NCBI GenBank assembly: GCA_965197385.1
Contig: CBDANA010000008.1
Location: forward strand, 146,155 to 210,154
DNA length: 64,000 bases
Source of the DNA: Vicinamibacterales bacterium
Lineage (GTDB): Bacteria; Acidobacteriota; Vicinamibacteria; Vicinamibacterales; UBA823
Direction: 5' to 3'
How positions within the stretch are numbered: position 1 is the stretch's first letter; each line of letters starts with the position of its first letter. Below are positions 2,488 to 63,447 of this stretch, in pieces. The notes beneath the pieces are model-generated. The model did no database searches. It was given only the letters and a program-made list of their open reading frames with translations, and was not told the DNA's origin. The position numbers and the translations under genes are program-made.

Positions 2488-4550
2488 GAATCCAGCTGTC
2501 CTGGCTCGGCGATTTCGTCGCGGTTCCAGTCGACGTGACAGCGCTCGCGGACGGACTCGACATGCGGGGCTTCGAGGTGGTCGCGACCGAGCCGGCGCCG
2601 CCGGGCAGCTCGGCCGGCGACGCCGTCCTGGATCTCGAAATCACGACGAACCGGCCTGACTGCCTGAGCGTCATCGGCATCGCGCGCGAAGTCGCGACGA
2701 TGTATCGCGCCGCGCTCACGGTCACCCCACCCGAGGCGGTGCCCCCGGCCGCTGGGCTGCCCGAGCTCTCGGTCACCCTGGAGGATCCCGAGCTGTGCCC
2801 GCGCTACGCCGCGGCGGTCGCCGAGGTCACGATCGGCCCGTCGCCCGCGTGGCTGACGCGGCGCCTCGAGGCGGCCGGCGTCAGAGCCATCAACAACATC
2901 GTCGATGTGACCAACTACGTGCTGGTCGAGCTGGGGCACCCGATGCACGCCTTCGACTTCGACCGGCTGGGTGGCGGGGAGCTGCGTATCCGGCGCGCCC
3001 GCCCGGGCGAGCGCCTTCGCACCCTGGATGGCCAGAACCGGACGCTGACCGAGGACATGCTGGTCATTGCCGATGCCGAGCGACCGCAGGCGGTGGCCGG
3101 TGTTATGGGCGGTGCCGACTCGGAGGTCAACGGCGCCACCCGTATCATCGCGCTCGAGAGCGCCTACTTCCAGCCGGTGTCGGTCCGACGCACGAGCAAG
3201 CGCCTCGCCCTGAGCACGGATGCGTCGTATCGGTTCGAGCGCGGCGCCGACGTGTCGGCGCCGGTGCGAGCCCTGGAGCGGTGCCGCGAGCTCCTGCGGC
3301 AGATCGGCGCCGCCAAGGCGGTCGGACCGGTCATCGATTGCTATCCGCAGCCCCGTACGCCGTCGCGGGTGCGGCTGCGCCACGCGCGCATCGGCCATCT
3401 GCTCGGCCCGACGATTGACGCCGCGTTCGTGACCGACGTTCTCGAACGGCTCGGCTTCACGCCTCACGCCGCCGGGGACGGCGCGTGGGACGTGGAGGTG
3501 CCGCTGCGTCGGGTCGACGTATCGCGGGAAATCGACCTCATCGAGGAGATCGCCCGCCATTACGGCTACGACCGGCTGCCATCCACGTTTCCGGCGCTGG
3601 GCGAGCTGTCGCCCGCGCCGGATCCCCGGATCGGTCGAGATCGGCTGGTGCGCCGCCTAGCCGGCGCCGCCGGCTTTTCCGAGGCGGTGACCTTCGCCTT
3701 CATCGAGGCCGACACGGCCACCGCGTTCGCCGACGACGGGACCCCGCTGGCGGCGATCTCCAATCCGCTCTCCGCGCAGTTTTCCGTCCTGCGGCCGTCG
3801 CTGCTGCCCGGCGTTGTCACCTCGGTGGCCTACAATCGCCGGCGCGAGCGCCGGGACGTCAAGCTGTTCGAAGTGGCCACGCGGTTCACCCTTGAGGGCG
3901 AGACGCGCGCCGTCGCGCTTGCCTGGATCGGCGCCGGCGCGCCCGACCACTGGAGCGCCAAGCTGCGAGCAGTCGACTTCTCCGACATCAAGGGCGCCGT
4001 GGAGCAGCTCTTGTCCGGCCTGGAGGTGGGTGCCCCCGCGTATCGTCCAGCCGCATGCGGATATCTGGCCCCGGGACGCGGGGCGACGGTCCACGCATCC
4101 GATGCGCCAGCAGCGCCTCGCCTAGGCGTGCTCGGCCAGCTCGCGCCGTCGGTTGCCGCTGGGCTCGGGCTGGAAGAGGCGGACGCGGTCTTCGTGGCGG
4201 AGCTCGACCTCGACGCAATCGCCGAGGCAGCGCCCGATCGCGGCGACGTCCGGGTGACCCCGCTCCCACGCCATCCGTCCGTCGTACGAGATCTGTCGAT
4301 ACTCGTGGACACTGCCTTGCCTGCATCGACCGTTCGTGGCACGATCCGTGCGGCCGCCCCGGACACGCTGATCGCAGTCCGCGAATTCGACCGCTACACG
4401 GGGACAGGCATTCCTGACGGGTTGGTGAGCCTGTCCGTGCGGCTCACCTTTCGCGCGCCCGATCGCACGCTGACCGACGCGGAGGTGCAGCAGGCGGTCG
4501 ACGCCGCGGTTGCCGCACTGGCGACGAAGAACGACGCGCGATTACGCTAG
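2484..4550 (+). CDS. pheT: phenylalanyl-tRNA synthetase beta subunit (short form, no N-terminal tRNA-binding domain)
   Basis: GTG at 2484 overlaps the pheS TGA (GTGA). B3/4 and B5 style sequence, and a FDRYTG..SLS.RL.F C-terminal anticodon-binding end. The stop TAG 4548-4550 lies inside a CTAG. Confidence 0.93.
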   Translation: MRIQLSWLGDFVAVPVDVTALADGLDMRGFEVVATEPAPPGSSAGDAVLDLEITTNRPDCLSVIGIAREVATMYRAALTVTPPEAVPPAAGLPELSVTLEDPELCPRYAAAVAEVTIGPSPAWLTRRLEAAGVRAINNIVDVTNYVLVELGHPMHAFDFDRLGGGELRIRRARPGERLRTLDGQNRTLTEDMLVIADAERPQAVAGVMGGADSEVNGATRIIALESAYFQPVSVRRTSKRLALSTDASYRFERGADVSAPVRALERCRELLRQIGAAKAVGPVIDCYPQPRTPSRVRLRHARIGHLLGPTIDAAFVTDVLERLGFTPHAAGDGAWDVEVPLRRVDVSREIDLIEEIARHYGYDRLPSTFPALGELSPAPDPRIGRDRLVRRLAGAAGFSEAVTFAFIEADTATAFADDGTPLAAISNPLSAQFSVLRPSLLPGVVTSVAYNRRRERRDVKLFEVATRFTLEGETRAVALAWIGAGAPDHWSAKLRAVDFSDIKGAVEQLLSGLEVGAPAYRPAACGYLAPGRGATVHASDAPAAPRLGVLGQLAPSVAAGLGLEEADAVFVAELDLDAIAEAAPDRGDVRVTPLPRHPSVVRDLSILVDTALPASTVRGTIRAAAPDTLIAVREFDRYTGTGIPDGLVSLSVRLTFRAPDRTLTDAEVQQAVDAAVAALATKNDARLR

Positions 4551-4738
4551 CGGCCCGTGGTGAAAGTCCCGCGTCGCACCGAGGGCCCGCTAAGATTATG
4601 CTGAAGCCGCGGTCGGCCCGAGGTAGGCGCGAGGAGGGAGAATACCGGGAGTATTTGACCGATCGTGGACAACGCCCAGCGCCGCCCATGGCGGGATGCA
4701 TCGGCGGTCGAATGCAGCGGGACTTTCACCACGGACTG
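4551..4738 (+). repeat. MITE-like inverted-repeat element, copy A
   Basis: Arms CGGCCCGTGGTGAAAGTCCCGC / GCGGGACTTTCACCACGGACTG plus the conserved core. Starts directly after the pheT CTAG; the right flank is CCAG. Confidence 0.85.
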
Positions 4739-4761
4739 CCAGCCAGAAGGGAACCTACTTC

Positions 4762-5034: not shown

Positions 5035-5083
5035 TGGTCCGCTCGCCGGCGCGCTGGCGGCGAGCCTCTCCAGGAGCGGTGTC

Positions 5084-5386
5084 GTGACCCAGAATGCTTC
5101 GAACGTCATCACCGTCGAAATCCACGGCAATCAATACCCGGTCCGCAGCCAGCTCGCCCGGCCCTACGTGACCAAGCTGGCCATCTACGTTGACGAGAAG
5201 ATGACCGTCGCCGCCGAGGAGACCTCCACCAGCGACTCTCTCAAGGTGGCCGTACTCGCGGCGCTCAACATCGCCGACGAGTACTTCACGTGCCGTGACA
5301 GCGACGAATCCACGACCTCGGAAGTGCTGAAGCGGACGGCGGCGCTCGAGGCCTTGATCGACCGTACGCTGGCGCCGGACTCTTAG
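5084..5386 (+). CDS. zapA: cell division protein ZapA
   Basis: VITVEIHGNQYPVRS...KVAVLAALNIADEY pattern. GTG at 5084 follows CAGGAGCGG. Confidence 0.8.
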   Translation: MTQNASNVITVEIHGNQYPVRSQLARPYVTKLAIYVDEKMTVAAEETSTSDSLKVAVLAALNIADEYFTCRDSDESTTSEVLKRTAALEALIDRTLAPDS

Positions 5387-5559
5387 CAGCCCGTGGTGAA
5401 AGTCCCGCGTGGCACCGAGACCCCGCTGAACCAAAGCCGCGGCCGGCCCGAAGGAGGCGCGAGGAGGGAGAATACCGGGAGTACCCGACCGACAACGCCA
5501 GCGCCGCGGGGCGGGATGCCTCGGCGGTTCGAATGCAGCGTGACTTTCACCACGGGCTG
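5387..5559 (+). repeat. MITE-like element, copy B
   Basis: CAGCCCGTGGTGAAAGTCCCGCG ... GTGACTTTCACCACGGGCTG. Begins right after the zapA stop (TTAG flank). Confidence 0.85.
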
Positions 5560-5934
5560 TTCGCCCCGTCGCCGCGCTTGCCACTCCCGGACGTTCGTTC
5601 TAAGATCCAGGGTGAGACATAATCGATTCGCGATACGGTTGACGAGACGAGATAGGATGGAGCTTGAGTTCCCTGCTTTGTTCGTGATGGTTCGGAGGCT
5701 CGGTTGAGCCAACGTTACCTCAAAGTGAATCGCGACACTGCGTGGTGTGCATACCTCCGAGCGAGGCAGCCTAAAGTGCGGATGGACACAGCGATTCCAC
5801 CTGCTGCACGCAGGTTCATCCGACCTCCCCACACGGCAAAGCGGGGGCCTTTCCTTCGCTGCGTTCGCCTCGCCTGACGCGCCGTTCCGCACACGACAAC
5901 CACCCATCCAAGCATCCGCGCGGACCAGTTCCAG

Positions 5935-6104
5935 CAGCCCGTGGTGAAAGTCCAGCGTGGCACCGAGACCCCCCCCATCGAAGCCGCGGTCGGCCTGCAG
6001 CAAGGCGCGAGGAGGGAACATGCCGGGAGTATTTGACCGACGAGCAACGCCGCGCGGCGGGATGCATCGACGGTCGAATGCAGCGGGACTTTTACCACGG
6101 GCTG
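5935..6104 (+). repeat. MITE-like element, copy C
   Basis: CAGCCCGTGGTGAAAGTCCAGCG ... GCGGGACTTTTACCACGGGCTG. Flanks are CCAG / CTAA. It ends 6 nt before the thiL ATG. Confidence 0.85.
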
Positions 6105-6110
6105 CTAACC

Positions 6111-26477: not shown

Positions 26478-26507
26478 ATGCCAGCACTCTATCATTCGCA
26501 GCCCTAG

Positions 26508-27802
26508 CAGGCTGCTAAAAAAGTCCATGGAATGGGATCGACAGATCGATCCCGGCGTACTCCCATGCTCCCAATATTGCTGAAGGGAGCCACCTCATGC
26601 GCGGACACGATGAGCAGACCCATCACATGTTCAGTTACCGGTCGCCGGAACAGCGCGTGCCGGCCGATCCTCCGCTCCGCGCGGTCCGCGCGCTGACGGA
26701 TCACGCGCTGAAGACGATGTCGCGCAGGTTCGCCGGCCTGTACGCCAAGACGGGACGTCCGTCGATCCCGCCTGAGCCATTGTTGCGGGCCCTGTTGCTG
26801 CAGGTGCTGTACACGATCCGGAGCGAACGGCTGCTGCTGGAAGAGCTCAACGACAACCTGCTGTTCCGCTGGTTCGTCGGCTTGCATATGGACGACCCGG
26901 TCTGGCATCCCACGACGTTTACCAAGAATCGTGACCGGCTGCTGGCGGGGGATGGCGCGGCCGCCTTCGTTGATGCGGTCCAGGCCCACGCCCGGGCGGC
27001 CGGTCTGCTCTCGGACGAGCATTTCACGGTGGACGGGACGCAGTTGGAAGCCTGGGCCAGCCTGAAGAGCTTCCGATGCCGGGACGCCGCGCCGCGCGCG
27101 CCCCCCGATGACCCCGGGAATCCCACGGTCGACTTCCACGGCGAGCGGCGGCGCAACGACACGCACCAGTCGACGACTGATCCGGCGGCGATGCTGCATC
27201 GGAAGGGCCAAGGGAAGGAGGCGAAGCTGGCGTCTCTGGGCCACGTGCTGTTGGATAATCGGCAGGGGCTCGTCGCCAACGTCTGTGCGACCCACGCGAC
27301 GGGGACCGCCGAACGCGAGGCGGCGGCACTGTTGCTGGAGGCCAGCGCGCCGCCGGGCAGCACGGTCGGAGCAGACAAGGGCTACGATGTGGCGAGCTTC
27401 GTCGCCGATGTCCGCGTCCGGGACGTCACGCCCCACGTGGCGCAGAAGGTCCGCTGGCGGGCGATTGATGGTCGGCCCACCCGGCATGCGGGTTCTCACG
27501 TGAGTCAGCGGAAACGAAAACTCGTGGAACAGGTCTTTGGGTGGAGGCAGACCGTCGGTGGTTTGCGCAAGCTCCGGCCTCGCGGCGTCCCACTCGTCGA
27601 GTGGCAGCTCACTTTCGCCGCCACGGCCTATAACTTGGTCCGCCTGCGGAATCTGGAGGCGACGTGTCCCTGCTCGCCGGCCGCGCGTGTCGCCGGCCCC
27701 CTCATCGGGGTCAGCGCACACCCGTGCGCACGGTCGTCGGGCGGTCGTTACCCGCATGATGCTTAAGAAAACAGCCCGATACCCGGGTTCTTCAGCAGCC
27801 TG
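26508..27802 (+). mobile_element. IS5-family insertion sequence (1295 bp) with a CTAG target duplication
   Basis: Ends CAGGCTGCTAAAAAAGTCC / rc CAGGCTGCTGAAGAACCC. CTAG at 26504-26507 and 27803-27806. Confidence 0.88.
26597..27766 (+). CDS. IS5-family DDE transposase
   Basis: InsH-type N-terminus (GRPSIPPEPLLRALLLQVLY..FRWFVGL) and a DDE region (VGADKGYD.., AYNLVRL). Confidence 0.9.
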   Translation: MRGHDEQTHHMFSYRSPEQRVPADPPLRAVRALTDHALKTMSRRFAGLYAKTGRPSIPPEPLLRALLLQVLYTIRSERLLLEELNDNLLFRWFVGLHMDDPVWHPTTFTKNRDRLLAGDGAAAFVDAVQAHARAAGLLSDEHFTVDGTQLEAWASLKSFRCRDAAPRAPPDDPGNPTVDFHGERRRNDTHQSTTDPAAMLHRKGQGKEAKLASLGHVLLDNRQGLVANVCATHATGTAEREAAALLLEASAPPGSTVGADKGYDVASFVADVRVRDVTPHVAQKVRWRAIDGRPTRHAGSHVSQRKRKLVEQVFGWRQTVGGLRKLRPRGVPLVEWQLTFAATAYNLVRLRNLEATCPCSPAARVAGPLIGVSAHPCARSSGGRYPHDA

Positions 27803-27956
27803 CTAGAGCCTGGGGTGAGACAACCTGGCATGCAGGGGCGTGCAACGCTGTGAGCAGCCTTTGACTCCGCGCATCCGAGCCGGTACCATCGGGCGCTTGC
27901 GCCGGTCCACGGACGCCCCGTCCAAACTGAACCGGCCGCGCTCGACCGGACGATGA

Positions 27957-31581: not shown

Positions 31582-31614
<33 letters not shown>

Positions 31615-31630
31615 TCCGACTGGTTTCACA

Positions 31631-40524: not shown

Positions 40525-41957
40525 GGGGATGTCCCGTGCGCTGTTGAAACTCAGCAGCAGCTTGGTTCACGACTACGCAACCATCTCTGACGACTCCCCG
40601 AGTCCTAACCGCGCGTCGCGTGCCAGGAGGGCAGCGACCAGCGCGGGCATATCTTGACATCCTTGCACCCGACGGAACCCCTTCGCCGCTTCGAGCACCC
40701 CGGCGGCCACCCAGCGCAGCACCATCGTCCCGCCGCGCCAGCGTTTCACATGGCGCTGCACATGGCGCGTTCGGCTGAGGAGACTCTCGATGGCGTTTGT
40801 GGTGGCGAGCGATCGTTGGAGACGCTCCGACAGACCCAAGCCGAGCACGGTCAGCGTCTCGTCGAGCCCTTCCCGCACGCTCGTGGCCGCACTCGGGTAA
40901 GTCAGTGTCCAAGCGCTGCGCCAGGTCCTGCAGCAGACGCTTGGCCGTCTTGACGGGGCTGTTCGTGTAGGCGCGCGTGAGGACCGCCTTCACCCCCGGC
41001 CGCTGTGCCTCAGGGAGATGCTCCAAGATGTTCCGGCCCTTATGGACCTGACACCGCTGCACCAGCGCGGCGCGCCCAAATGTCTGGGTCACGGCCGTGT
41101 CGAGGGCCTTCGCGCCATCGACGATCACCAGCAGGCTCCGGTCGGTGCGCAGCCCGCGGCTGCCGAGATTGGTCAAGAGCCCCTGACAGACCGTCGCGTT
41201 CTCCGTGGCCCCTTCCCACAGGCCGAGCGGGTGTTTCGCGCCCATTTTATCGATGCCTAGGGCGACAACGATACAGTGTCCACCCACGTGCACGCCATCA
41301 ATCAGCAGCCCCACCAGGTCCAGCGCGTCGAGCGGCGTCGCCCGCCACGCATCCAGCTGCGCCTGGGTTTGCGCGACAAAGCGTCGACTGACCGCACTCT
41401 TGCTCGTGCCCCGCGTGGTGACGTCGGCGCCGAGCGGTTCCAGACTCCGCGCATACTGGCGGGTCGCCACACCGATCAGCATCTGGTCGACCACGCGCCG
41501 GTTCAGCGGGTCCGCATTCGCGAATGCCCGGGCCGTTGGCAACGGAACCTCCTCGCCGGCGCGCCGCGCACGGGGCCGACGAATCGCCACCTTCCGCCCG
41601 CCCAGCACGACCTGACTCGGCGTATGCCCCGTTCGATACGCCTGGCGCGCAGGTTGATGCGCATACCGTGGCCCACAGACGGCGGCCCGATCCTCTTCCA
41701 GCATGGCTTCGAGTACCTTCAGGCCAGACGCGACGACCCGCTCCTGGAGCGCGGCCTGCGTATCAATGAGGATATCGACCAACGGAAGGTGCCGTGGCGT
41801 CGGGGATACCGATTGGCGACGGCGAGGGACTGTGCGAGACTGCTTCTTCATGGCGGCTCCTTACTGGGAGGCTTGCACCTCGGTTTCGTCACCGGTCGTA
41901 TAGCACGACCAGTGAAGAGCCGCCGCTTCAAATTTCAACAGCTACTGGGACATCCCC
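40525..41957 (-). mobile_element. IS256-family insertion sequence, copy 2 (1433 bp), inverted relative to copy 1
   Basis: Same IRs as copy 1, with a perfect 8-bp duplication ACATGGGC at 40517-40524 and 41958-41965. Confidence 0.92.
40573..41851 (-). pseudogene. IS256 transposase with a 1-nt insertion frameshift
   Basis: Relative to copy 1 there is one extra base near 40899 (GACACTGACTTACCC versus GACACTGACTACCC), which splits the ORF into 40502-41851 and 40573-40878. Confidence 0.85.
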
Positions 41958-43428: not shown

Positions 43429-43896
43429 CCCGGTGGCAGCGGTGGTCGTTCCATTTACTGATGACGGCGTCGGCCGTCAGCGGCGCGGTCTATACTGTGG
43501 ATGCGGTATCTGCTTGAAGCCGACGACCCGTTCAGCGTCATCAATCACCCGTGGCAGCCGGCGATGCTGGGCGTCCATCTGCTGACGGCGCCGGCAGTCA
43601 TTCTCCTGTTTGGCATCGTGTTCCAGTCGCATATCGCTCGCAAGCTCGACAGCCCTGACCGCACGAACCGTCGGAGCGGCTGGACGTCGCTCCTGACCTT
43701 CGGTGTGATGGCGTCCTCCGGGTACCTGCTGCAGGTCGTGACCTCCCCGCTCACCGTGCAGCTCGTCTGGGGGCTCCATCTGGCCAGCAGCGGGGCGTTC
43801 GTGGTCGGCTACACCGTGCATCTCGTGCTCGGGTTCAACCTGCTTCGCACCTTCCTGCTGCGCCGCCGGGCCGCCGTCGCCGTCTCGGAGTCATGA
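43425..43896 (+). pseudogene. small polytopic membrane protein, possible frameshift near 43490-43500
   Basis: GTG 43425 overlaps the upstream TGA (GTGA) and encodes a TM start (WSFHLLMTASAVSGAVY). The body (43501-43896) is in the next frame. The ATG at 43501 could instead be the true start. Confidence 0.4.
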
Positions 43897-45032
43897 GCCT
43901 CTGCGTACGCGCATGCGCCGCCACCATGTGGCTGCTAGCCGCCACGGGTCCACAGGCGCTCGACGCGCCCAGCAGCCACCCTTCCCGCCCCGGTCACGCG
44001 ACGAGTGGCGCTCATGGGCACCTGGGCGGCGCTGACGACCTACGCCGGGAGCCGCACAGAGGCGGTCAGCGCGCTCGACGCCAAGGTTCGAATCCTCGAG
44101 CAAACCGAATCGGAGCTCAGTACCTGGCGGCCGACCAGTGCCCTGAGGCAGATCAACCGTTTGCCGATCGGCGCTGCCGGCGCCCTGGATCCGCCGCTCT
44201 GCCGGTTGCTCGAGCGCGTGCAGCGCTGGCAGCGACGAACGGCTGGGGCATTCGACCCGGCCATCGGCGCCCTGATCGCAGCCTGGGATCTGCGGGGTGC
44301 GGGTCGCATCCCGACCGAGGCCGAGCTGGCATTGGCCCGGGCGCGCGCCGGCTGGACGTACGTTGCGCTGGACGGGCAGGCCTACCTCTCAGGCGACGCC
44401 GTGACGTCACGCTGGATGCCGGCGCCTTCGGCAAAGGTGAGGCCCTCAACCGGATCCTGGCCACCGGGGAGGATGTCGGTCCGTGGCTGGTCGATCTCGG
44501 CGGACAGGTCGCGGTCTCGGGACCGCGCCCGGACGGGTCGGGATGGCCGGTGGCGCTGGCGCACGCCGGGCGGCGGCACCTCGGCCTGATCGACCTCGAG
44601 TTGCACGGGGGCTCACTCGCCACCAGTGCCGGCTCGGAGCGCGACCGCGTTGTAGCAGCCCGGAGGGTGGGGCACGTGATCGATCCCCGGAGCGGACATC
44701 CAGCGCCATTCAACGGCTCGGTCACCGTCTGGCACGAGCGCGCACTCGCGGCCGACATTCTCTCGACCGCGCTCTTCGTGATGGGACCACCGGCCGGACT
44801 TCGATGGGCCGAGCGGCACGACGTGGCAGCGCTGTTTCAGGTGCCGGATGGCGCCAGCGCGACAGGCCCGCTGGCGCTCTGGCCGAGCCGCGCCTTCGCG
44901 AGGCAATTTCCGGGCTGGCCGCCCGTGGTGAACGTCCCGCGTCGCACCGAGACCCCGCTGAGTCGAAGCCGCGGTCGGCCGGGGCAAGGCACGAGGAGGA
45001 AAAATACTAACGCCAAACCGCGCGTCAGGTGA
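43893..45032 (+). pseudogene. apbE: FAD:protein FMN transferase (ApbE) in three frame segments
   Basis: ATG 43893 overlaps the upstream stop (ATGA) and gives a signal peptide. The ApbE core (LMGTWAALTTY..STWRPTSALRQIN..GAFDPAIG) is in frame +1. The distal part (LDAGAFGKGEALN..HVIDPRSG) returns to the first frame. The 3' end reads into repeat E. Confidence 0.7.
44919..45016 (+). repeat. MITE-like element, truncated copy E (5' half)
   Basis: CCGCCCGTGGTGAACGTCCCGCGTCGCACCGAGACCCCGCTGAG..GAGGAGGAAAAATAC, then lost. Confidence 0.7.
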
Positions 45033-46113: not shown

Positions 46114-46268
46114 CCTTCACCGACAACCGAACACGTGGCGATCGCGACGACGACCGGTCCTGATGCGAGTGGAATGCGAGCAGCCCCACTCGACCGTAGC
46201 GTATCGAGTATATCGGGAATATCTCAACGAGACGCAACGCAGCCAGCGGGGATGCATCGCCGGCCGGG

Positions 46269-46859
46269 TCAGGCGATCGTGATACGGACTTCCACGGACG
46301 TTTCAGGCGCGTACGGCGGATTCACCGTGAACTGGAAGCGCGCGCCGGGACGAACACCCGGGGGAATCGACAAGCGCACGAGGTGCCGGTGGGGCGCCGA
46401 GCCGGTCCCACGGCACATCGAGCACCATTCCGCCCACACTTCCCCGCGTCCGCCACACACGAGGCAGGTGCAGCACACCGGCACTTCCAGGGCCACCTGC
46501 GCCCCCTCCCGCGCCTGATGCCACGAGAGGCGCACGTGCGCCACACGCGGGTCATCCTCCGCTTCCATCAGCCCACGGCCGAGGCGTTCGACGATTCTCG
46601 ACACCGACGGAAAGTCGATGGCCACATCCTGGTAGACGGGCTCTGCTCGACGCGGTACGACCCAACGCGCGTCAGGTTGATCCGCCCCACCCGCGGCCAT
46701 CATCTCGTAGGCACGTCGCACCTCGCAGACGCGCTCGAGGGCAGGACCGTCGTGCGCGACCGCCGCCTGTCCGCGGCGTTGGACTTCACGATGCACGCGG
46801 CGAAGCTCGTTGGCTCGAGCCGCACGTGGCACGCCGACCACCCAGGAATATTCACGCAT
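46269..46859 (-). CDS. DnaJ-like protein with a CxxCxGxG zinc finger and a degenerate J region
   Basis: CLVCGGRGEV..CSMCRGTG followed by a DnaJ C-terminal-like beta region. I saw no HPD motif. Confidence 0.55.
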   Translation of the reverse strand: MREYSWVVGVPRAARANELRRVHREVQRRGQAAVAHDGPALERVCEVRRAYEMMAAGGADQPDARWVVPRRAEPVYQDVAIDFPSVSRIVERLGRGLMEAEDDPRVAHVRLSWHQAREGAQVALEVPVCCTCLVCGGRGEVWAEWCSMCRGTGSAPHRHLVRLSIPPGVRPGARFQFTVNPPYAPETSVEVRITIA

Positions 46860-46919
46860 GAAGCCGCCAGGTACGATAGGAGCGTGTCGCGGGCCTTGTC
46901 AAGGACGAGCCGATGCTAA

Positions 46920-47102
46920 CAGCCCGTGGTGAAAGCCCCGCGTCGCACCGAGACCCCGCTGAACTAAGGCCGCGGTCGCCCCGGGGCAAGGCGTGAGGAG
47001 GGAAAATACAGGTAGTATTTGACCCATCGTGGACAACGCCCAGCGCCGCCGAAGCCGGGATGCATCGGCGGTCGAATGCAGCTGGACTTTCACGACGGGC
47101 TG
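46920..47102 (+). repeat. MITE-like element, copy F
   Basis: CTAA|CAGCCCGTGGTGAAAGCCCCGCG ... CTGGACTTTCACGACGGGCTG|CTGG. Confidence 0.85.
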
Positions 47103-47106
47103 CTGG

Positions 47107-47381
47107 GCGCCCGTCCGAGTATTCGCGTGGGCCGCGCGCGTGGGTCTTGCGAGCCGCAGACAAGAAGCGCGGAGGAGGCGATGCCGCGGCGCATCGGCGA
47201 CGACGTGTGACGCGGTCTGCGGCCGCAACCCCCACGCGCCCTGTGGGTTGCGGCGGCGTCGGGCCATCTGCCGCGTTGCGCCTCCCCGACGATGCGCTGG
47301 GGCATCGCCTCGTCGGCGCGCCTGGCAGCTGGCCCCACGGCGCTCGCAACGCGGCCTACGCGAATACTCGGACGGGCGCCT
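47107..47381. repeat. 275-bp imperfect palindrome (rod-like hairpin element)
   Basis: Outer arms GGCGCCCGTCCGAGTATTCGCGTGGGCCGCG / CGCGGCCTACGCGAATACTCGGACGGGCGCC. Inner arms GAGGCGATGCC..CGCATCG / CGATGCG..GGCATCGCCTC. Centre GCCGCAACCC..GGGTTGCGGC. Confidence 0.8.
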
Positions 47382-47442
47382 AGGGTCTCGAATCGAGGCG
47401 CTCGAAGCTCTCGCACGCTCGGTGTGTTCGCGAGACCGAACC

Positions 47443-47608
47443 ATGATCAAGGTGTGTCCGATGTGCGGCCAGACCATGCGATTCGTCGTGCGCGAACAGA
47501 TCGACCACATTCCCGGAACCGGACAAACGTTCCGCCAGCAGGTTCGTGAATGGGACCTGGCCCGAGTGCGACTATTTCGAGGAGGTAGACGACCAGTCGG
47601 AAGGGTGA
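47443..47608 (+). CDS. small zinc-ribbon-like ORF, reading frame uncertain
   Basis: MIKVCPMCGQTMRF.. from ATG 47443. A +1 shift near 47550 would give ..WPECDYFEEVDDQSEG*, whereas the unshifted frame runs on to 47658. Confidence 0.3.
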
Positions 47609-47638
47609 AGCACGCAAAACCCGGCCGCAGCGAGGCAA

Positions 47639-47860
47639 TTACCGGGACGCCACGGTGAGGAGCATCTCGCGGCGAAGCGGCTCCTCGACATCCGCCAGAT
47701 TCAGCTCGACCTCACACTCGTCACAGAGCACCTCCAGGATCGCTGGTCGGCTCTCCTCGGACACTTCGACCCGCGCATCTTCGACGTGCACGACGTGTAT
47801 CTGTAACGTCTTGACGAGGAAATCCTTTTCATTCCCACAACTGGAACAGCTCAGCGTCAT
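47639..47860 (-). CDS. small zinc-ribbon protein (CxxC...CxxC)
   Basis: 73 aa: MTLSCSSCGNEK..VLCDECEVEL... ATG 47860 follows GGGGAG and lies 20 nt from repeat G. Confidence 0.5.
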   Translation of the reverse strand: MTLSCSSCGNEKDFLVKTLQIHVVHVEDARVEVSEESRPAILEVLCDECEVELNLADVEEPLRREMLLTVASR

Positions 47861-47880
47861 CACATCTCCCCGAACGTTAG

Positions 47881-48049
47881 CAGCCCGTGGTGAAAGTCCG
47901 GCGGCATTCGGCCGGCGATGCATCCCCGCTGGGTGCGTTGCGTCTCGTTCAAATATTCCCGATATTCTCGCTCGTCGTGCCTTGTTCAGGCGGACCGCGG
48001 CTTCAATTCAGGGGCCCTCGGTGCGACGCCGGACTTTCACTACGGGCTG
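47881..48049 (-). repeat. MITE-like element, copy G
   Basis: TTAG|CAGCCCGTGGTGAAAGTCCGGCG ... GCCGGACTTTCACTACGGGCTG|CTAG, with the core in reverse orientation. Confidence 0.85.
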
Positions 48050-48186
48050 CTAGGCACGGCGGCCGCCTGCCCCTTCCTGGATTGTACGGCCTGCCTCCGC
48101 GCGACGCAACGACGTTTTTCTCGGGCAGCACCCGCGACCGACAGGCGATCGGCTACAATCGATCGTCAGTCAACGCACGATTCTAG

Positions 48187-48344
48187 CAGTCCGTGGTGAA
48201 AGTCCAGCGTCGCACCGAGGGTGGTGATGCGCCCGGCTGGCAAGGCGCGACGAGTGAGAATATCGGGAATATTTAAGCGAAGAGCAACGCCGCCAGCCGG
48301 GATGCAGCGCCAGCCGAATGCAGCTCGACTTTCACCACGGGCTG
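48187..48344 (+). repeat. MITE-like element, copy H
   Basis: CTAG|CAGTCCGTGGTGAAAGTCCAGCG ... CTCGACTTTCACCACGGGCTG|CTCA. It ends 10 nt before ATG 48355. Confidence 0.85.
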
Positions 48345-48354
48345 CTCAGGAGCG

Positions 48355-48561
48355 ATGTCCATGTCAGGTACGTTCGAAGTTCGCAGCGAAGCGAAAGGGG
48401 CACACTGGATCGCCTGGGTCTGCCGTGGTGGACAGGGCACCCCGGACGGCGCCGTCGTGCTGGTCGGCCAGACTCAGGAGGAAGCCGAGGATCGGGCGCG
48501 CGCCTGGGGTGAGCGAACACCCGCGGCGTCGGCGGCGCCGCCTAAGTGGCCCGTGTCATAA
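48355..48561 (+). CDS. hypothetical small protein
   Basis: 68-aa ORF following CAGGAGCG; no motif recognised. Confidence 0.35.
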   Translation: MSMSGTFEVRSEAKGAHWIAWVCRGGQGTPDGAVVLVGQTQEEAEDRARAWGERTPAASAAPPKWPVS

Positions 48562-48703
48562 ATACGGCCGCATTCGGCCGCCAATGCATCCCTCCCACGG
48601 CGTTCCTCGTCGGTCGAATACTGCCGGTATGCTCCCTCCTCGCGCCTTGCGGGGCGGGCGCCTCGACGCCCTCGGTGCCTGGCCGTATTTATGATACGGA
48701 CCA
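48547..48703 (-). repeat. MITE-like element, copy I (variant termini)
   Basis: CTAAG|TGGCCCGTGTCATAAATACGGCC ... GGCCGTATTTATGATACGGACCA|CTAAG. The 5-bp flanking repeat is perfect, and the core is shared with the other copies. Confidence 0.85.
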
Positions 48704-48716
48704 CTAAGATTGGCCG

Positions 48717-55758: not shown

Positions 55759-55842
55759 GAAAACTGCACCCAGCCTAGTGCGGCCTCTGCACGCGGTCAA
55801 GCAGCGCACCCATGCGGACAGACGCCGACCGCGGCATCCCAG

Positions 55843-55910
55843 CAGGCCGTGGTAAAAGTCGCGCTGTGGAAACCTTGTGGACCGTCAGTGCATGCCTTGT
55901 GGACGGTCTG
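55843..55910. repeat. MITE-like element, internally deleted copy L
   Basis: CCAG|CAGGCCGTGGTAAAAGTCGCGC ... GGACGGTCTG|CTAA. Only the terminal parts are retained. Confidence 0.55.
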
Positions 55911-55993
55911 CTAACGTCATTTTTTTTGATCGTGCTTCCCCAACAAAGCGATCGAATCTGCCGTCAACCCGCGTCCTTCGTCGTTTCTTCCGC

Positions 55994-57459: not shown

Positions 57460-57535
57460 TGGTGGACCAGACGGGGTTCGAACCCGTGACCTCGTGAATG
57501 CCATTCACGCGCGCTCCCAGCTGCGCCACTGGCCC
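57460..57535 (-). tRNA. tRNA-Ala (anticodon GGC), CCA encoded
   Basis: rc folds as a cloverleaf: GGGCCAG/CTGGTCC acceptor with G3:U70, D stem GCGC, anticodon loop AUGGCAU, T arm ACGGG-TTCGAAC-CCCGT, and ACCA. Confidence 0.92.
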
Positions 57536-57546
57536 ACGGTGACTAG

Positions 57547-57704
57547 AACCCATCTCATAAACCACGCCGGCATTCGGCCGCCGATGCATCCCGTCCCGCG
57601 GCGTTGCTCATCGGTCAAATACGGCCGGTATTCTCCCTCCCCGCGCCTGGCGGGACGGGCGCCTCGACGCCCTCGGTGCCTCGCCGTGGTTTATGGGATG
57701 GGTA
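57547..57704 (-). repeat. MITE-like element, copy J (variant termini)
   Basis: CTAG|AACCCATCTCATAAACCACG ... CGTGGTTTATGGGATGGGTA|CTAA. It lies between the mocA-like stop and tRNA-Ala. Confidence 0.85.
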
Positions 57705-57708
57705 CTAA

Positions 57709-58341: not shown

Positions 58342-58386
58342 CCTTCCTCCGCGCTGTCAGCACCGTACGGCATCAGCCCATTCTAG

Positions 58387-58517
58387 CAGTCCGAGGTGAA
58401 AGGCCCGCTGCATTCGACTGCCGATGCGTCCCGGCTTCAGCGGCGCTTGGCGTTGCCCACGATGGGTCGAATACGCCCGCATTCTCTCTTTTTGCACTTG
58501 CTCGGGCCAACCGCGTG
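58387..58517 (-). repeat. MITE-like element, copy K (partly deleted)
   Basis: CTAG|CAGTCCGAGGTGAAAGGCCCGC..GCATTCGACTGCCGATGCGTCC.. ...|CTAG, with CTAG on both flanks. Confidence 0.75.
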
Positions 58518-59595: not shown

Positions 59596-59691
59596 GGAAG
59601 CGAACGGGGCCCGGTGGCCCTCCCGGTCTTCAAAATCGGTCGCTCCCCGCTCTGCGGGGGGGCTGGGTTCAACTCCCAGGCGCTTCCGCCA
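59596..59691 (+). tRNA. selC: tRNA-Sec (selenocysteine, anticodon UCA), CCA encoded
   Basis: GGAAGCGA../..GCGCTTCC 8-position acceptor. 6-bp D stem GGGGCC/GGCCCT with a 4-nt loop. Anticodon loop CTTCAAA. Long variable arm CCCCGC/GCGGGG. T arm CTGGG-TTCAACT-CCCAG. Ends G-CCA. The 5' and 3' ends resemble E. coli selC (GGAAGATC...GATCTTCCGCCA). Confidence 0.9.
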
Positions 59692-62206
59692 TAACTTGTT
59701 CCCGTCATTGCACTTCCCGATCAGCGATCGGCCGTCTCCTGACTGTCTCCAAACTTGAGATTCGGATGACGGCGGCGGTCACGAAGGTAGGCGTCATTAT
59801 GGGGACGCCAGCCAACAGCCTTGGGCGGACAGAGGGCACGCACCGGCGGCACAGAGACAACCATGAATTTCTGCGAACACAGTGAAAGTCAACGATTGGA
59901 TCTGGCCTCGATCTTGCGGCCGCTGTGCCGGGTGCGGGCAGACCGGTCGGTGCTCCTTTGTTGTGTTTGTCTGTTGCTCGGCGGCGCGCCAATGCCACCA
60001 GTCAGCAATTTACCGGTGGCGTTCGTGGCCTCGTCCGTGACGCTGAGGGCGTCAGCGCCGGTGCCACCGTGAGGCTGACCAACGAGAACACCAACGGCGA
60101 GCGTCGGACGGTTACCAACGACGCAGGGCAGTACGCGTTCGTGGCGGTCCCACCGGGCACCTACACGGTCCGGACCTCACTGCCGGACCACCGGACGGTG
60201 GTTCGTCCGGGGATCGAGATTGGAACGCAGGAGTTCATAACACTCGACCTCCTGCTGAAAGTCGGTGCACCGGAGGACCCGCTCACGGTGATCGCCGACG
60301 TGCCCTCGATCGAGACCGCCAACGCGTCCGTCGCGAGCGTGCTCGATCGGGTGATGCTAGGTACCTGGCCGTCGCCCAATCGCAATCCGTTCGCCCTGGC
60401 CGTCACGGCCCCAACGGTCGTCTCCGCCGGCGAGCGACGCCTCACGCTGCAGGGAGACCAGACCGACTCCTCCCGCATCTCGATCGGGGGCGGAGGTATC
60501 CAAGCCAACAACTAGGTCCTCGACGGCGTGCCGATCAGCGACCTGCGTGGCCGCTCACTGCTGAGTCCGACGATCGAGGCGATACAGGACGTCAGGATTC
60601 AAGTGCATACGTACGACGCCGAGGTGGGCCGCACGGGCGGCGGCGTGTTCAACACGACTGCGCGTGCGGGCACCAACGCCTTCCATGGCTCCGGGTTCTT
60701 TCAGACCCGACCGGTGTGGGGACAGTCGCTTGACTTCTTCGACGTGCAGCGAGAAGTGACAAAGGAGGACGTCGGGCTGACCGGGGCAGTGCACCAAGTC
60801 TACGGCGGAGGCGGTGGTGGGCCGATCTGGCGGAACCACACCTTTTTCTGGGCGGCTTCGGAGAGCTATCGCGCGAGGCGGCTTGGGAACACCCAGGAGC
60901 TCTGGCCGACCGCCCGTCAGCGAGCAGGTGATTTCTCCACGACGACGGTCAACGGTGCAGCGGTCCGTATATTTAGTCCGTACTGTCGCGGCGGAGGCGC
61001 CAGCGCACAGTGCCCGGCAACGGGGCCCAGCGGGACGCTGGAAAATCCGGAGTTCGCCAACGCGATCATCCCGGCGTTCGTCCTGAATCCCGTGGCCCTC
61101 AACATGGCTGCTGTCTGGCCGCTGCCGAACCAAGACAACGACGACACCGAGCCGAATGCCATCGGTACGACCGAGTCAATCGACGAAGCCGACATGGTGA
61201 GCTTCAAGATCGAGCACAGGTTCACCGACGGCTGGACGCTGGGCGGGCTCATCGTCTACACCGAAACCAGAGAACAGTCACCGTTCCTGATGGAACAGCC
61301 GATTGCCGCCACGCTGGACCGGAACAGCGGCGTGGTGCAGCGACGGCCGCGCGTGTTGGTATTCAATAGTACAAACGTCCTCAGCGACCAGACTGTGCTG
61401 ACGGTGCGCGTCGGCGGCGCCAGCTTCTCGCGCCGCGTCGCGCCGGGGACGTTCGCGGGCGGCCCGCAGGGTCTCGGATTCAGCTCGACTTTCGTTAGCG
61501 CGATAGACCCGGCCGGCCGAAGCCTGTTTCCCGGTCTGGCCTTCCAGAACTTCACCAGTGTGGGCCGGACCACCGGTGAGGACGAGCGGTGGGAGCAACC
61601 GTACGCAATCAACGCGTCGCTCTCGAAGTTGGCCGGCCGCCACACGTTCAAGATCGGTGGTGATGTGCGGCAATTGAGCGGTGCGGTCACGACGGAGCAG
61701 TCCAACGCCGGCAACTTCCTCTTCAACAGAAACTTCACGCAGGATCCTGACGGGCTGGGCGGCTACGACTTTGCGAGCTTTCTCGTGGGCGCGCCGAGGG
61801 CGGCGAGCTACGCACCGTTCAACCGCGGCGACATCGAAGTGTTCACGCGGCACTTCGGCGGCTACTTTCAGGATGACTGGCGCGTGCGCCAGAATCTGAC
61901 AATCAACTATGGTGTGCGACTCGAACGAGAGGACGGTCTGCGGGAACTCGAGGATCGCTTCACGGTTGGTTTCGATCAGGACGTCATCAGCCCGCTCGAC
62001 GCCCTCGTCCCCGCATCGGCGCGCGTCGGCACGCCGCTGGAGGGGCGGACGATCCGCGGTGGCCTCATCTTCGCGGGCGTCGGTGGCGCCAACCTCCATC
62101 AGGGCGACCCGCCCACCGTGAAAGTGTCGCCGCGGTTCGGTCTGACCTACGCACTCAATGATCGCACTGAATCGTACCGGGTTTCTCGGAGACCGAATTC
62201 GTTGAA

Positions 62207-63100
62207 TCAGGCCACCTCAGCCTGCTCATAGTACTGCGCCTCGAACTCTGCTGGTGGAATGTCCCCGAGCGGCCCCAACAGTCGTCGTGTGTTGAACCAG
62301 TCCACCCACGTCAAGGTGGCGAACTCCACGGCCTCGAGGGTGCGCCACGGGCCCTTCCGTCGAATCACCTCCGTCTTGTACAAGCCGATCACCGATTCGG
62401 CGAGGGCATTGTCATAGGCATCGCCTTGGCTGCCGACCGACGGCGCGATGCCGGCGTCCACGAGGCGATCCGTGTACCGCATCGAGAGATATTGCGACCC
62501 GGCATCACTGTGATGTACGAGGCCGGTGAGGGCGTCGCCCCGGCGGGCGTAGATCGCCTGCTCCAACGCATCCAGCACAAAGTCCGTGCGCATGGAGGCC
62601 GACACCCGCCAGCCCACAATGCGGCGCGCAAACACGTCGATGACGACCGCGACGTAGACAAAGCCGCCCCAGGTTGCGACGTACGTGAAATCGGAGACCC
62701 AGAGCTGATTCGGACGGGTGGCCACGAATCGGCGGTCAACGAGGTCCACCGGGCGACCGCCCTCACCTGCGGGGGTCGTGGTGACCCAGGCCCGGCCCCG
62801 GACGGCCCCGGCAAGGCCCATCGCGCGCATCAGGCGCGCCACAGTGCAGCGCGCCACGCGGACGCCGTCCCGCCGCAGCTGCTTCCAGACTTTCCGGGGG
62901 CCGTAGACCTGCTGGTGCGCGTCATAGACCCGCTGAATCTCGACGCGGAGCTGATCGTCGCGCTGCGCCCGTGCGGACCGGCGCGTCGGATGTGTCCGCT
63001 GGTGCCGATGGCGATGATACGTCGACGGGGCGATCGGCAGCACGGCGCAGATCGGCTCGACCCCGAACACGGCGCGATGGTCGGCGATGAACTGGACCAT
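62207..63100 (-). CDS. IS3 transposase OrfB (integrase core, DDE)
   Basis: WVSDFTYV, HSDAGSQY and DNALAESVIGLYKTE motifs. It is probably expressed as an OrfAB fusion by -1 frameshifting. Confidence 0.9.
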   Translation of the reverse strand: MVQFIADHRAVFGVEPICAVLPIAPSTYHRHRHQRTHPTRRSARAQRDDQLRVEIQRVYDAHQQVYGPRKVWKQLRRDGVRVARCTVARLMRAMGLAGAVRGRAWVTTTPAGEGGRPVDLVDRRFVATRPNQLWVSDFTYVATWGGFVYVAVVIDVFARRIVGWRVSASMRTDFVLDALEQAIYARRGDALTGLVHHSDAGSQYLSMRYTDRLVDAGIAPSVGSQGDAYDNALAESVIGLYKTEVIRRKGPWRTLEAVEFATLTWVDWFNTRRLLGPLGDIPPAEFEAQYYEQAEVA

Positions 63101-63105
63101 CGTGG

Positions 63106-63447
63106 CTACGTCCTCCGGCGGTCGAGCTCCGCCTGGGCGAAATACGCGAACGCTTTCCGCAGGATCTCATTCGCCCGCTTCAGCTCACGGACCTCGCGCT
63201 CCAGCTCCTTCAACCGCTCCCGCTCGCTCGTCGTCAGGCCCGGCCGATGCCCAGCATCACGCTGCGCCTGCCGCACCCACTTCCGCAGCGTCTCCGCCGT
63301 GCAGCCGAGCTTCGGCGCCACCGACTGCAGCACCGCCCACTCTGAGGCGTGGGCCTCTCGGTGCTCCTCGACCATCCGGACGGCACGTTCGCGCACTTCC
63401 GGAGAAAACCGACTTGGACGTCCCATAGACCCCATCCTCCCAAGCAA
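63106..63447 (-). CDS. IS3 transposase OrfA (HTH)
   Basis: [14 protein letters not shown].. and a leucine-zipper-like end. OrfB follows in the -1 frame. Confidence 0.88.

Follow-up and report, generated by a model that had tools for sequence, protein, structure and literature searches.

A mobile repeat of 160–195 nt, present as 8 full and 3 truncated copies in the 64-kb stretch of DNA that we analysed (the window), is a non-autonomous transposon of the type II MITE kind, resembling insertion sequences (IS) at its ends only, and it carries a selected RNA or single-stranded DNA (ssDNA) structure whose role is unknown and for which no discrete transcript has been shown. We infer the selection because a strand-specific fold is kept while the ends of the element vary. 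The initial annotation of this DNA had proposed a functional fold of RNA or ssDNA instead of the drift of an ordinary MITE, and covariation outside the terminal arms together with a strand-specific constraint supports that proposal. In addition to the 11 copies, the window contains a mini derivative of 72 nt as well as a "double-module" element related to the repeat, and the arm motif occurs 15 times where 0.59 occurrences are expected. The features discussed below are as follows, where the module is the conserved apical part of the element.

4550..4739, forward strand: copy A, long form
5386..5560, forward strand: copy B, long form, upstream of the 6S RNA gene
5667-5851: 6S RNA gene, between copies B and C
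5934..6105, forward strand: copy C, 3' of the 6S RNA gene; module at 5999-6052
26504..27806, forward strand: IS5-family insertion sequence, transposase at 26597-27766 with DUF772 and DDE_Tnp_1 domains
44914..45007, forward strand: copy D, the 5' half alone, ending inside the apical hairpin after AATAC
46205..46290, forward strand: copy E, a fragment of the apex and 3' part with a decayed 3' arm
46919..47103, forward strand: copy F, long form; module at 46985-47041
47107..47385, no strand assigned: related "double-module" palindromic element, arms GGCGCCCGTCCGAGTATTCGCG
47880..48050, reverse strand: copy G, long form with canonical arms GCAGCCCGT(G/A)GTGAAAGTCC; module at 47933-47986
48186..48345, forward strand: copy H, short rod form with canonical arms; module at 48239-48292 (72.5 bits)
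48546..48704, reverse strand: copy I, short rod form with variant arms GTGGTCCGTATCATAAATACGG; module at 48598-48651
55842..55913, forward strand: mini derivative of 72 nt with canonical-like arms (GCAGGCCGTGGTAAAAG / ...GGACGGTCTGC) and without the core
57546..57705, reverse strand: copy J, short rod form with variant arms GAACCCATCTCATAAACCACG and TA on both sides; module at 57599-57652
58383..58515, reverse strand: copy K, 5'-truncated

The letters that the initial annotation quoted for copies G, H, I and J are all found in the sequence, those of G, H and I inside the interval that it described. These include the differing arms of copy I (GTGGCCCGTGTCATAAATACGGCC) and copy J (GAACCCATCTCATAAACCACG) and the internal helix of copy H, CCCGGCTGGC/GCCAGCCGGG. 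Its apical hairpin needs one correction: the stem sequences are as claimed, with AATAC/GTATT for copies A and J and AATAT/ATATT for copies G and H, but the loop of copy J reads CGGCC and not CGGGA. In the long forms A, B, C, F and G, added segments flank the middle helix on both sides; these forms do not adopt a simple rod, and their structure remains unresolved.

More than 200 hits were obtained in related loci. Relatives occur in Acidobacteriota (mostly Vicinamibacterales), Gemmatimonadota and Gammaproteobacteria, with closed MAG chromosomes among the carriers; OZ252227.1 and NZ_OZ253579.1 are examples of closed chromosomes with the element. We compiled a comparative set of 69 copies from many genomes; none of the fetched loci came from the window's own genome. 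Plasmid collections, phage collections and viral contigs contained no match to the element. The elements were not matched when the whole window was searched against Rfam 15 at the gathering score, and nothing meaningful fell on them when the threshold was relaxed to E = 10 for positions 4400-6300 of the window or to E = 1 for 11 related loci. The only matches were at chance level, namely mir-4928 overlapping copy B (E = 2.5) and sR10 on the opposite strand of the element at related locus L192 (E = 0.66). A literature search retrieved reviews of MITEs and no description of the present element. A protein-coding core was considered and rejected, as the element has neither a consistent open frame nor a 3-base (codon) periodicity.

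Across the 69 copies, mean column identity was 0.65–0.66 in the arms and 0.85 in the core, where the latter value counts only the columns that had not been used for finding copies. The core is thus better conserved than the termini, as had been claimed from the window alone. Metagenome copies found via a different core motif still kept GCACCGAG and GGGATGCA..CGAATGC at 90% or higher.

The conserved core belongs to a long rod with 53 predicted Watson-Crick or wobble pairs, or about 75 stacked pairs when non-canonical ones are counted, and the top strand folds with z-scores between -3.4 and -12. The basal helix is formed by both terminal arms and is followed by an internal loop (4x3) that contains a tandem G·A; above this loop lie two helices with an invariant G·U, and a G·A ladder of 54 nt forms the apex. 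The cells of the rod are paired in 94.5% of cases across the 69 copies, compared with 76.1% in shuffles, and the basal helix (helix 1) is 93.4% paired. Double compensatory changes were found at 40 of the 53 pairs. The covariation score of 0.513, against 0.18 for shuffled alignments, was not reached in any of 500 shuffles, and partners slid along the alignment scored no higher than 0.10. The compensatory stem changes noticed in the window are confirmed in the aligned copies. The initial annotation had cautioned that arms of a transposon covary without any RNA structure and that copies G and H might represent a single event. The first caveat can be removed because at least 111 independent switches from one Watson-Crick pair to another, counted on a rough tree, occur in helices that are not terminal repeats. 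The second can be set aside because covariation outside the arms is massive and the switches are independent. The apical change between G and H is one instance of pair 88-97, which is CG in 34 copies and UA in 30; on a neighbour-joining tree this pair switched independently at least 7 times.

The fold constraint is specific to one strand. A G·U pair at columns 55-133 is conserved in 64 of the 69 copies, and G·U outnumbers A·C by 3:1 both in the arms (64:21) and in the core (72:25). The top strand gives the more stable fold in 67 of the 69 copies. Whether this strand acts as RNA or as ssDNA is not distinguished by the present data.

The initial annotation had seen a purine-rich loop below the apical hairpin. 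This region is in fact a helix, in which a ladder of tandem G·A pairs is set between covarying Watson-Crick pairs. The ladder reads CAAGGCGCGA-N-GA-NN-GAG, then a hairpin, then GA-NN-GA-N-GAGCAACGC, and has three fixed tandem G·A/A·G pairs while the intervening Watson-Crick pairs covary freely. Four tandem G·A sites are conserved in 57–68 of the 69 copies. The same 54-nt module was also found in otherwise unrelated mobile rods, some of them from AT-rich hosts and some with one ladder per strand, and its covariation is 0.53 compared with 0.16 for shuffled alignments. In the double-module element of the window, too, both strands carry one G·A-ladder hairpin each, in degenerate form (47159-47215, forward; 47271-47327, reverse). 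Tandem sheared G·A pairs in kink-turns and loop E are 5'-GA/5'-GA steps closed by Watson-Crick pairs and are classic sites for proteins and metals in RNA. The ladder resembles them in its conserved 5'-GA/5'-GA steps and Watson-Crick closure. A kink-turn reading of these steps was nevertheless rejected because the ladder has three G·A steps in a continuous helix without a 3-nt bulge, a geometry off the consensus. The basal CCGA/GAA loop does not qualify either, being a 4x3 loop in which the 5' side has just 2 bases to spare.

It could be argued that none of this reflects function, and that young palindromic MITEs would covary through shared descent, through arms that track their transposases and through quasi-palindrome correction at the DNA level. 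Covariation of the arms alone is indeed expected of terminal repeats, copies in the same genome are related, and hairpin-templated repair can match arms. However, templated correction would erase G·A and G·U, yet those columns are conserved best, and the independent switches counted above lie in non-arm helices. Neither the 3:1 excess of G·U over A·C nor the greater stability of the top strand would be expected of duplex DNA, and the ladder is conserved between families that have unrelated stems and different base composition. We consider this explanation very improbable, and it is largely refuted by the present results.

The evidence for transposition comes from the flanks and ends of the element. 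It is small, non-coding, dispersed and multicopy, its arms of 20–25 nt pair in every full copy, and direct target duplications are present, so that each of these criteria for a MITE is met. The target is CTAG or CTNAG, and direct TA or TNA duplications flank the element, as in CTAAG...CTAAG and CTTAG...CTTAG. Copies of the TA class sit in CTAG. In the TNA class, tallied by hand, 15 of 27 copies have identical flanking trinucleotides, about 21 of 27 share the middle base on both sides, and only 2 are palindromic. In the window, copy G lies between TA at 47878-79 and TA at 48051-52; copy H has a left C-TA in CTAG (48183-86) and a right flank decayed to TC; and copy I is enclosed by a direct TAA duplication (48543-45 and 48705-07), of which the left TAA terminates a 68-codon ORF. 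Stop codons of genes are a frequent target. Tandem and nested copies also exist.

IS5 elements have a TNA/YTAR target habit with a 2–4 bp duplication in ISfinder descriptions, and the flanks of the element meet the YTAR/CTAG-type target criterion for IS5-family mobilisation. The IS5-family IS of the window is itself inserted in CTAG, which holds in three contexts, and 13 of 20 positions at its left end, GCAGGCTGCTAAAAAAGTCC, agree with the canonical arm. In the window and on two other contigs, an IS5-family IS has in common with the element the CTAG target, the terminus GCAG and the subterminal motif TGAAA(A)GTCC. On this sequence resemblance, the IS5-family transposase of the window is a candidate for the mobilising enzyme, and its action in trans is only inferred. 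About 1.5 Mb of related loci yielded no autonomous element whose arms are identical, and searches for solo arms, for long-range inverted repeats and by tblastn with the IS5 transposase found only the window's IS as a candidate partner.

Several known systems share parts of this picture. A type II MITE is defined by similarity to an IS confined to the ends (PMC10969869). Type II MITEs mobilised by IS5-family (PIF/Harbinger-related) transposases, and Tourist-like elements, match the present element in the TNA/TA duplication, the YTAR-like target and the G...C termini. The interiors of ordinary type II MITEs, however, drift and differ by family, whereas here different arm classes enclose one conserved interior. 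ERIC and Correia (CREE/NEMIS) elements are MITEs of about 100–160 bp that form long RNA hairpins targeted by RNase E or RNase III (PMC3184786; PMC10969869). They are similar to the present element in having terminal repeats and TA flanks and in being often located at gene 3' ends and co-transcribed. They are defined by conserved ends, whereas in the present element the ends vary most and the non-Watson-Crick apical motif least, and there are no RNase data for it. For bcr1, a repeat of about 155 bp in the Bacillus cereus group, compensatory changes keeping an RNA-level stem were reported (PMC3184786). It is likewise a dispersed mobile repeat with short target duplications, but it is restricted to a single species group, has a 5-bp duplication and has no reported G·A ladder, whereas the apical module described here is common to several phyla and to families with different arms.

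REP/REPIN elements, which are mobilised by RAYT, and IS200/IS605-derived palindromes are also short dispersed hairpin repeats, and the enzymes of both recognise a single-strand fold. To our knowledge, they have no target duplication and no such terminal inverted repeats. Membership of the REP/REPIN group is not met, as the present flanks are direct repeats and not inverted tetranucleotides. IS200/IS605 elements show a replication-strand bias, and membership of that type is not met either, given a 50 to 49 strand split, terminal repeats and duplications. Integron attC sites and the attP of CTX phage are imperfect hairpins of which only one strand is read. What is conserved in them is the structure, together with a few unpaired or mismatched positions, and not the sequence of the stems. 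They are substrates of tyrosine recombinases with defined core sites (GTTRRRY in attC); such cores and recombinase genes were not seen with the present element.

We also revisited how the copies relate to genes. The pheT stop codon TAG (4548-4550) consists of the duplicated TA and the first base of copy A, and the zapA stop codon TAG (5384-5386) overlaps the start of copy B. The order in the window is pheT-A-zapB-zapA-B-6S-C, and many copies adjoin stop codons inside transcription units. A tRNA gene (57463-57535, reverse strand) begins about 10 nt downstream of the end of copy J. The co-orientation of copies with their neighbours noted in the window does not hold as a general bias, since outside it 31 copies are sense and 22 antisense, which is not significant (9:5 in tight gaps), and sense and antisense copies are equally conserved. 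Orientation relative to the leading strand, inferred from GC3 skew, which is independent of gene orientation, is unbiased at 50 versus 49. A replication-strand bias suggested by raw local GC skew (68:41) was dropped because the window contradicts it and GC3 skew does not reproduce it. A consensus scan of copies F to I detected no sigma-70 promoter or terminator in the element. Among the criteria for a structured RNA, covariation and strand asymmetry are therefore met, and a consistent orientation or an own promoter and terminator are not.

The fold might act as RNA within host transcripts, as a cis element for processing, stability, insulation or protein binding that the host tolerates or exploits. 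The many copies abutting stop codons in transcription units and the position of copy J near a tRNA gene would suit such a role, the conserved G·U and sheared G·A are typical of RNA, there is a mild sense excess, and Correia (RNase III), ERIC (RNase E) and bcr1 are precedents. On the other hand, this excess is not significant, antisense copies are conserved just as well, and the copies lack a terminator-like tail. A role in host transcripts would also leave unexplained why mobile families that are unrelated retain the ladder in different phyla and why some elements have one ladder per strand. We regard it as rather unlikely.

Alternatively, the dispersed copies could be genes for a small RNA of about 165 nt that acts in trans, for instance as a protein sponge or decoy, and that is made from whichever copies are transcribed by chance. 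Its rod shape, length and conserved non-canonical motifs resemble those of protein-titrating RNAs, and dispersed multiple copies would provide a high dose. Yet the copies scanned show neither a promoter nor a terminator and Rfam has no match for the element, and the hypervariable basal helix and target duplications indicate a transposon and not a gene family. Such copies should moreover decay, because a shared product gives the producing copy no advantage. This makes a trans-acting RNA improbable.

The reading that we favour, at a little under even confidence, is that these elements form a superfamily of type II MITEs in which the fold of a single strand is under selection for promoting the spread of the element itself, with RNA versus ssDNA unresolved. 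IS5-family DDE transposases would mobilise the element in trans, and the top-strand fold would be a cis-acting signal for its own propagation, which is proposed as the reason why selection keeps the fold of the single top strand. The G·A ladder might be a platform for protein recognition, the basal helix might draw both element ends together, and the fold could come into play when the donor copy is in single-stranded form, be it a transcript or unwound DNA. Inserted copies would be near neutral for the host. Selection on spread and not on resident copies is inferred, and it fits the absence of an orientation bias relative to genes or replication and the equal conservation of sense and antisense copies. 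We also count in its favour the lack of a promoter or terminator, the intact ladder on each strand of double-module elements and the closed chromosomes carrying the element across phyla.

There are points against the cis-signal interpretation. IS5-type DDE transposons act on double-stranded ends, and we know of no single-strand step in their transposition. The IS of the window matches the arms only partially, as given above, and lacks the ladder, and no protein partner has been identified. Many arm classes would also need many cognate transposases, or one that recognises only a small part of the arm. A role as RNA in host transcripts would be just as compatible with the conserved G·U and with the location directly behind stop codons.

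More speculatively, and with rather low confidence, the 54-nt ladder hairpin may be an undescribed structured mobile module that occurs across phyla, with the variable arms as a vehicle only. It may be the recognition element of a DDE-type MITE transposition that needs single-strand folding, or a new class of protein-binding ncRNA that rides on transposons.

Bacterial MITEs are usually viewed as decaying shells in which the ends matter and the interiors do not. The present element reverses this view: its ends are interchangeable, and its interior folds in a strand-specific way and includes a near-invariant motif of non-Watson-Crick pairs, which persists across element families, host base compositions and at least three phyla. 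Acidobacteriota and Gemmatimonadota are mostly uncultured groups, and the 54-nt conserved module provides a simple probe for the whole superfamily. If the fold is needed for mobilisation, a single-strand step would belong to the life cycle of a DDE-type element. If the fold acts as RNA, a large and unannotated class of structured RNA would be inserted after many genes.

Two of the truncated copies deserve a comment. The apex as a general breakage hotspot was rejected; the evidence for it was biased because the half-copies had been picked by a pattern that forces the break there. It was also ruled out that the mrp/apbC gene had interrupted a single element and left copies D and E as its halves. 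The two are distinct truncated copies, because E breaks elsewhere and is close kin of copy G, to part of which it is 94% complementary.

Repeat finding, BLAST and profile searches identified eight full copies (A, B, C, F, G, H, I and J) and three truncated copies (D, E and K) of the dispersed element in the window, and the arm motif CCCGTGGTGAAAGTCC occurs there 15 times with at most three mismatches, where 0.59 would be expected by chance. The interval 47881-48703, from which the initial annotation had inferred a functional folded molecule, holds copies G, H and I. These copies and two further features are as follows.

47880-48050, minus strand: copy G
48186-48345, plus strand: copy H
48546-48704, minus strand: copy I
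47107-47385: palindromic element of 279 nt with its own arms and two apical modules, one hit per strand with the covariance model R1
26504-27806: IS5-family insertion sequence with transposase domains DUF772 and DDE_Tnp_1

All sequence details quoted in that annotation were found in the window, except that the apical loop of J is CGGCC and not CGGGA. The short forms H, I and J each fold into a single long rod, with shuffle z-scores between -5.4 and -12 for the top strand and between -4.1 and -8.6 for the bottom strand. We also observed a 72-nt derivative (55842-55913), which has canonical-like arms without the core.

The conservation of the element is inverted compared with the usual MITE, which is a new pattern. 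For the comparison, 69 short-form copies drawn from many genomes were aligned with MAFFT without structural input; the window's own genome was not among the related loci compared. The mean column identity was 0.65–0.66 for the arms versus 0.85 for the core columns unused for ascertainment, and the proposal that the core is better conserved than the termini thus holds well beyond the window. The arms fall into at least ten classes with only a loose common pattern, a 5' G followed by CCGT/CCAT and then a GAAA/TAAA run. The core blocks GCACCGAG and GGGATGCA..CGAATGC are kept at 90% or more in metagenome copies found via a different motif.

The element has a strand-specific fold supported by covariation. 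RNAalifold predicted a rod of 53 pairs from the 69-copy alignment, 40 of which have pair-keeping changes on both sides, bearing out the compensatory stem changes noticed earlier in a few copies. Paired cells amounted to 94.5%, compared with 76.1% after shuffling, and the covariation score of 0.513 (0.18 in shuffles) was reached by none of 500 shuffles; it fell to at most 0.10 when the partners were slid by 1–3 columns. Fitch parsimony on a neighbour-joining tree requires at least 111 strict Watson-Crick-type switches in the helices outside the arms, with minima of 13, 12 and 11 for the pairs at alignment columns 62-125, 80-105 and 76-109, respectively. These counts rest on a rough tree and may be raised by recombination between copies, but the signal is far from marginal. 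The concern that sister copies might represent a single event is thereby removed. The other caveat, that covariation of transposon arms alone proves no structure, no longer limits the conclusion because the covarying helices outside the arms are not transposase-binding ends. As a minor observation, the middle helix of some main-family copies has an additional hairpin (GGCACGGCTTTAGCCGTGCC) inserted in its 3' strand (L169:850-1064 and L208:835-1051, loci from other genomes), and different insertions occur at this level in the window's long forms A, B, C, F and G.

The most conserved part of the element is a non-Watson-Crick ladder. The stretch GAGGAGGGAG opposite GACCGACGAG, previously described as a purine-rich loop, is instead a series of three tandem G·A/A·G steps, each present in 57–65 of the 69 copies, between isolated pairs (76-109, 79-106 and 80-105) that covary; pair 76-109, for instance, is GC in 39, CG in 17 and AU in 8 copies. 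The dinucleotides that separate these pairs remain GA on either strand. In 68/69 copies, a fourth tandem G·A occupies the basal CCGA/GAA internal loop, and 64/69 copies retain a G·U at 55-133, which is replaced by A-U only twice and by G-C never. At the third ladder step, A·G changes to C·A on both sides together in nine of the 69 copies (columns 82/103; e.g. L005, L009 and L038), a coordinated change at a non-Watson-Crick position.

On the complementary strand, the ladder and the conserved G·U would read as C·T and C·A mismatches, and the positions that hairpin-templated correction of a DNA palindrome would erase are precisely the best-conserved ones. Predicted stability favours the top over the bottom strand in 67/69 copies, with RNA and DNA energy parameters alike. 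G·U outnumbers A·C by 72:25 in the inner helices, even with the two conserved G·U pairs excluded, and by 64:21 over all pairs in the arms. The same 3:1 bias in the arms shows that they, too, are constrained as a one-strand helix and not only as duplex binding sites.

The ladder also extends beyond the main family. A metagenome scan with its 5' strand only (CAAGGCGCGANGANNGAG) yielded 120 loci, 85 with the main family, and about 14 remaining loci were different mobile rods with unrelated arms and stems and CTAG-type flanks, one of them from an AT-rich locus. Their sole common part is the apical module, CAAGGCGCGA-N-GA-NN-GAG / hairpin / GA-NN-GA-N-GAGCAACGC. An alignment of 63 modules, nine from the different-rod families, was 93% paired, had a covariation score of 0.53 (0.16 in shuffles) and contained G·A/A·G in 59–61 of the 63 at each step. 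R1, a covariance model of this module, recovered all eight full window copies and gave weaker hits at 47159-47215 (+) and 47271-47327 (-), both within the palindromic element. At least seven metagenome loci contain further double-module elements of this kind, in which each strand bears an intact ladder. By the definition used (PMC10969869), our data establish a type II MITE superfamily.

The repeat is a genuine transposon. When oriented, its copies start with G, end with C and are located within CTAG or CTNAG. The flanks are TA in the classes whose termini are GCAG-, GGAG- or GTGT-, and TNA in those whose termini are GTGGTCC- or GTGCTGCC-. The latter flanks repeat directly and not in inverted form (TTA/TTA, TAA/TAA, TCA/TCA): by hand count, the trinucleotides are identical on both sides in 15 of 27 copies, share the middle base in about 21 and are palindromic in only 2. 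In this genome of 66% G+C, TA-containing targets are frequently stop codons. The start of copy A overlaps the TAG of pheT (4548-4550), that of copy B overlaps the TAG of zapA (5384-5386), copy I adjoins the TAA of a 68-codon ORF, and 13 of 31 sense copies among related loci overlap the upstream gene's stop codon. The excess of elements between convergent over those between divergent genes (20 vs 8 for intergenic copies, 24 vs 8 for all copies) fits such targets. Head-to-tail dimers are present in L056, L005 and L009.

The IS5-family insertion sequence is inserted at CTAG, as are two further copies on other contigs, and its left end GCAGGCTGCTAAAAAAGTCC agrees with the canonical arm GCAGCCCGTGGTGAAAGTCC at 13/20 positions. 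It lacks the core of the element, its transposase falls in very abundant clusters, and none of the insertion sequences found had the same arms as one of the MITE classes. This transposase is a candidate for the mobilising enzyme; the evidence is suggestive and not proof. In L191:170-1560, an IS4-like IS (DUF4372 and DDE_Tnp_1) lies exactly inside the apical loop of an element with an 8-bp duplication, CCGGGAGT, and the 5' and 3' halves of the element around it belong to different families, which suggests that the loop is a target of this IS and that two elements were rearranged with each other as a result.

What the fold is for can only be inferred. Correia, ERIC and bcr1 repeats (PMC3184786, PMC10969869) offer precedents for a cis-acting RNA role in host transcripts, the main rival and, in our judgement, an unlikely though serious one. 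The co-orientation with neighbouring genes reported for the window does not extend outside it: between co-directional genes, 31 related copies are sense and 22 antisense, counted on codon-usage gene calls spot-checked with Pfam, and profile scores are equal for both. A trans-acting small RNA fits the data less well and appears improbable; no sigma-70-like promoter or intrinsic terminator was found in copies F to I. The absence of any function, also a poorer fit, seems more improbable still. The element contains no conserved reading frame or codon periodicity. Since there is neither orientation preference nor orientation-dependent conservation, yet the ladder is constant across families and phyla and in some elements on both strands, the simplest reading is selection on spread. 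What is selected would be how well the lineage can spread and not the individual resident copies, and the folded top strand, as a transcript or unwound DNA, would serve as a cis-acting platform used during mobilisation. We hold this reading tentatively, at somewhat less than even chances, and the role in mobilisation is likewise inferred. RNA and single-stranded DNA cannot be separated by the available data. A replication-strand bias was rejected: the raw GC skew (68:41) was contradicted by the window, and the GC3 skew gave 50:49.

A scan with a 23-nt core motif, one genome per species, found more than 105 loci (a lower bound), most of them, among the matches listed, in MAGs of Vicinamibacterales or other Acidobacteriota. 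Full-length copies also occur in further Acidobacteriota orders, in Gemmatimonadota (one case being a closed Longimicrobiales chromosome) and in the closed gammaproteobacterial chromosomes of Candidatus Rariloculus and Candidatus Azophilus. Judging by the copies that come closest to those of the window, its source is inferred to be probably a Vicinamibacterales relative. Nothing similar was found in plasmid, phage and viral collections. No Rfam family matched at the gathering score or at permissive E-values, the sole overlapping hits being chance-level (mir-4928, E = 2.5; sR10, E = 0.66), and no description of the element was found in Rfam or the searchable literature. MITEs folding as RNA and compensatory change in such repeats (bcr1) are already known; the modular, cross-phylum G·A-ladder hairpin and the double-module architecture are new, and the chance that the module points to a new mechanism is substantial.

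The surroundings of the copies are also of note. One conserved operon (pheT-zapB-zapA-ssrS) carries three insertions: A follows pheT, and B and C bracket, in the same orientation, the 6S RNA gene (5667-5851, Rfam 69.4 bits) within 5384-6105. A 2.6-kb region without a Pfam-recognisable gene (46114-48716) is a nest of E, F, the double-module element, G, H and I, with only two small ORFs, 47639-47923 (-) and 48355-48561 (+), neither matching Pfam. An ApbE-family ORF (43893-45032) continues across truncated copy D before it reaches its stop codon, and element sequence may thus encode the protein's present C-terminus. A tRNA gene (57463-57535, -) shares the strand of J and begins about 10 nt downstream of it; if the promoter lies upstream, J would belong to the tRNA leader. 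A selenocysteine tRNA lies 2 kb away (59596-59687, +).

Other mobile elements are present as well. Group II intron RNA domains (31504-33403, -; RF02003 88 bits, RF00029 43.6 bits) adjoin a pyruvate kinase gene; the RF02003 consensus opens with bases (cAGcgGGUGaAAGUCCcgcc) similar to the canonical arm CAGCCCGTGGTGAAAGTCCCGC, probably by coincidence. Two 100% identical 1.43-kb IS256-family copies (Transposase_mut; 17596-19027 and 40525-41957) in inverted orientation bracket about 21.5 kb with the intron and housekeeping genes, an arrangement that looks like a composite transposon. An IS3-family IS (62168-63477, -) is bounded by terminal repeats of 32 nt and contains HTH_Tnp_1 and rve ORFs together with an ALIL frameshift pseudoknot (87 bits).
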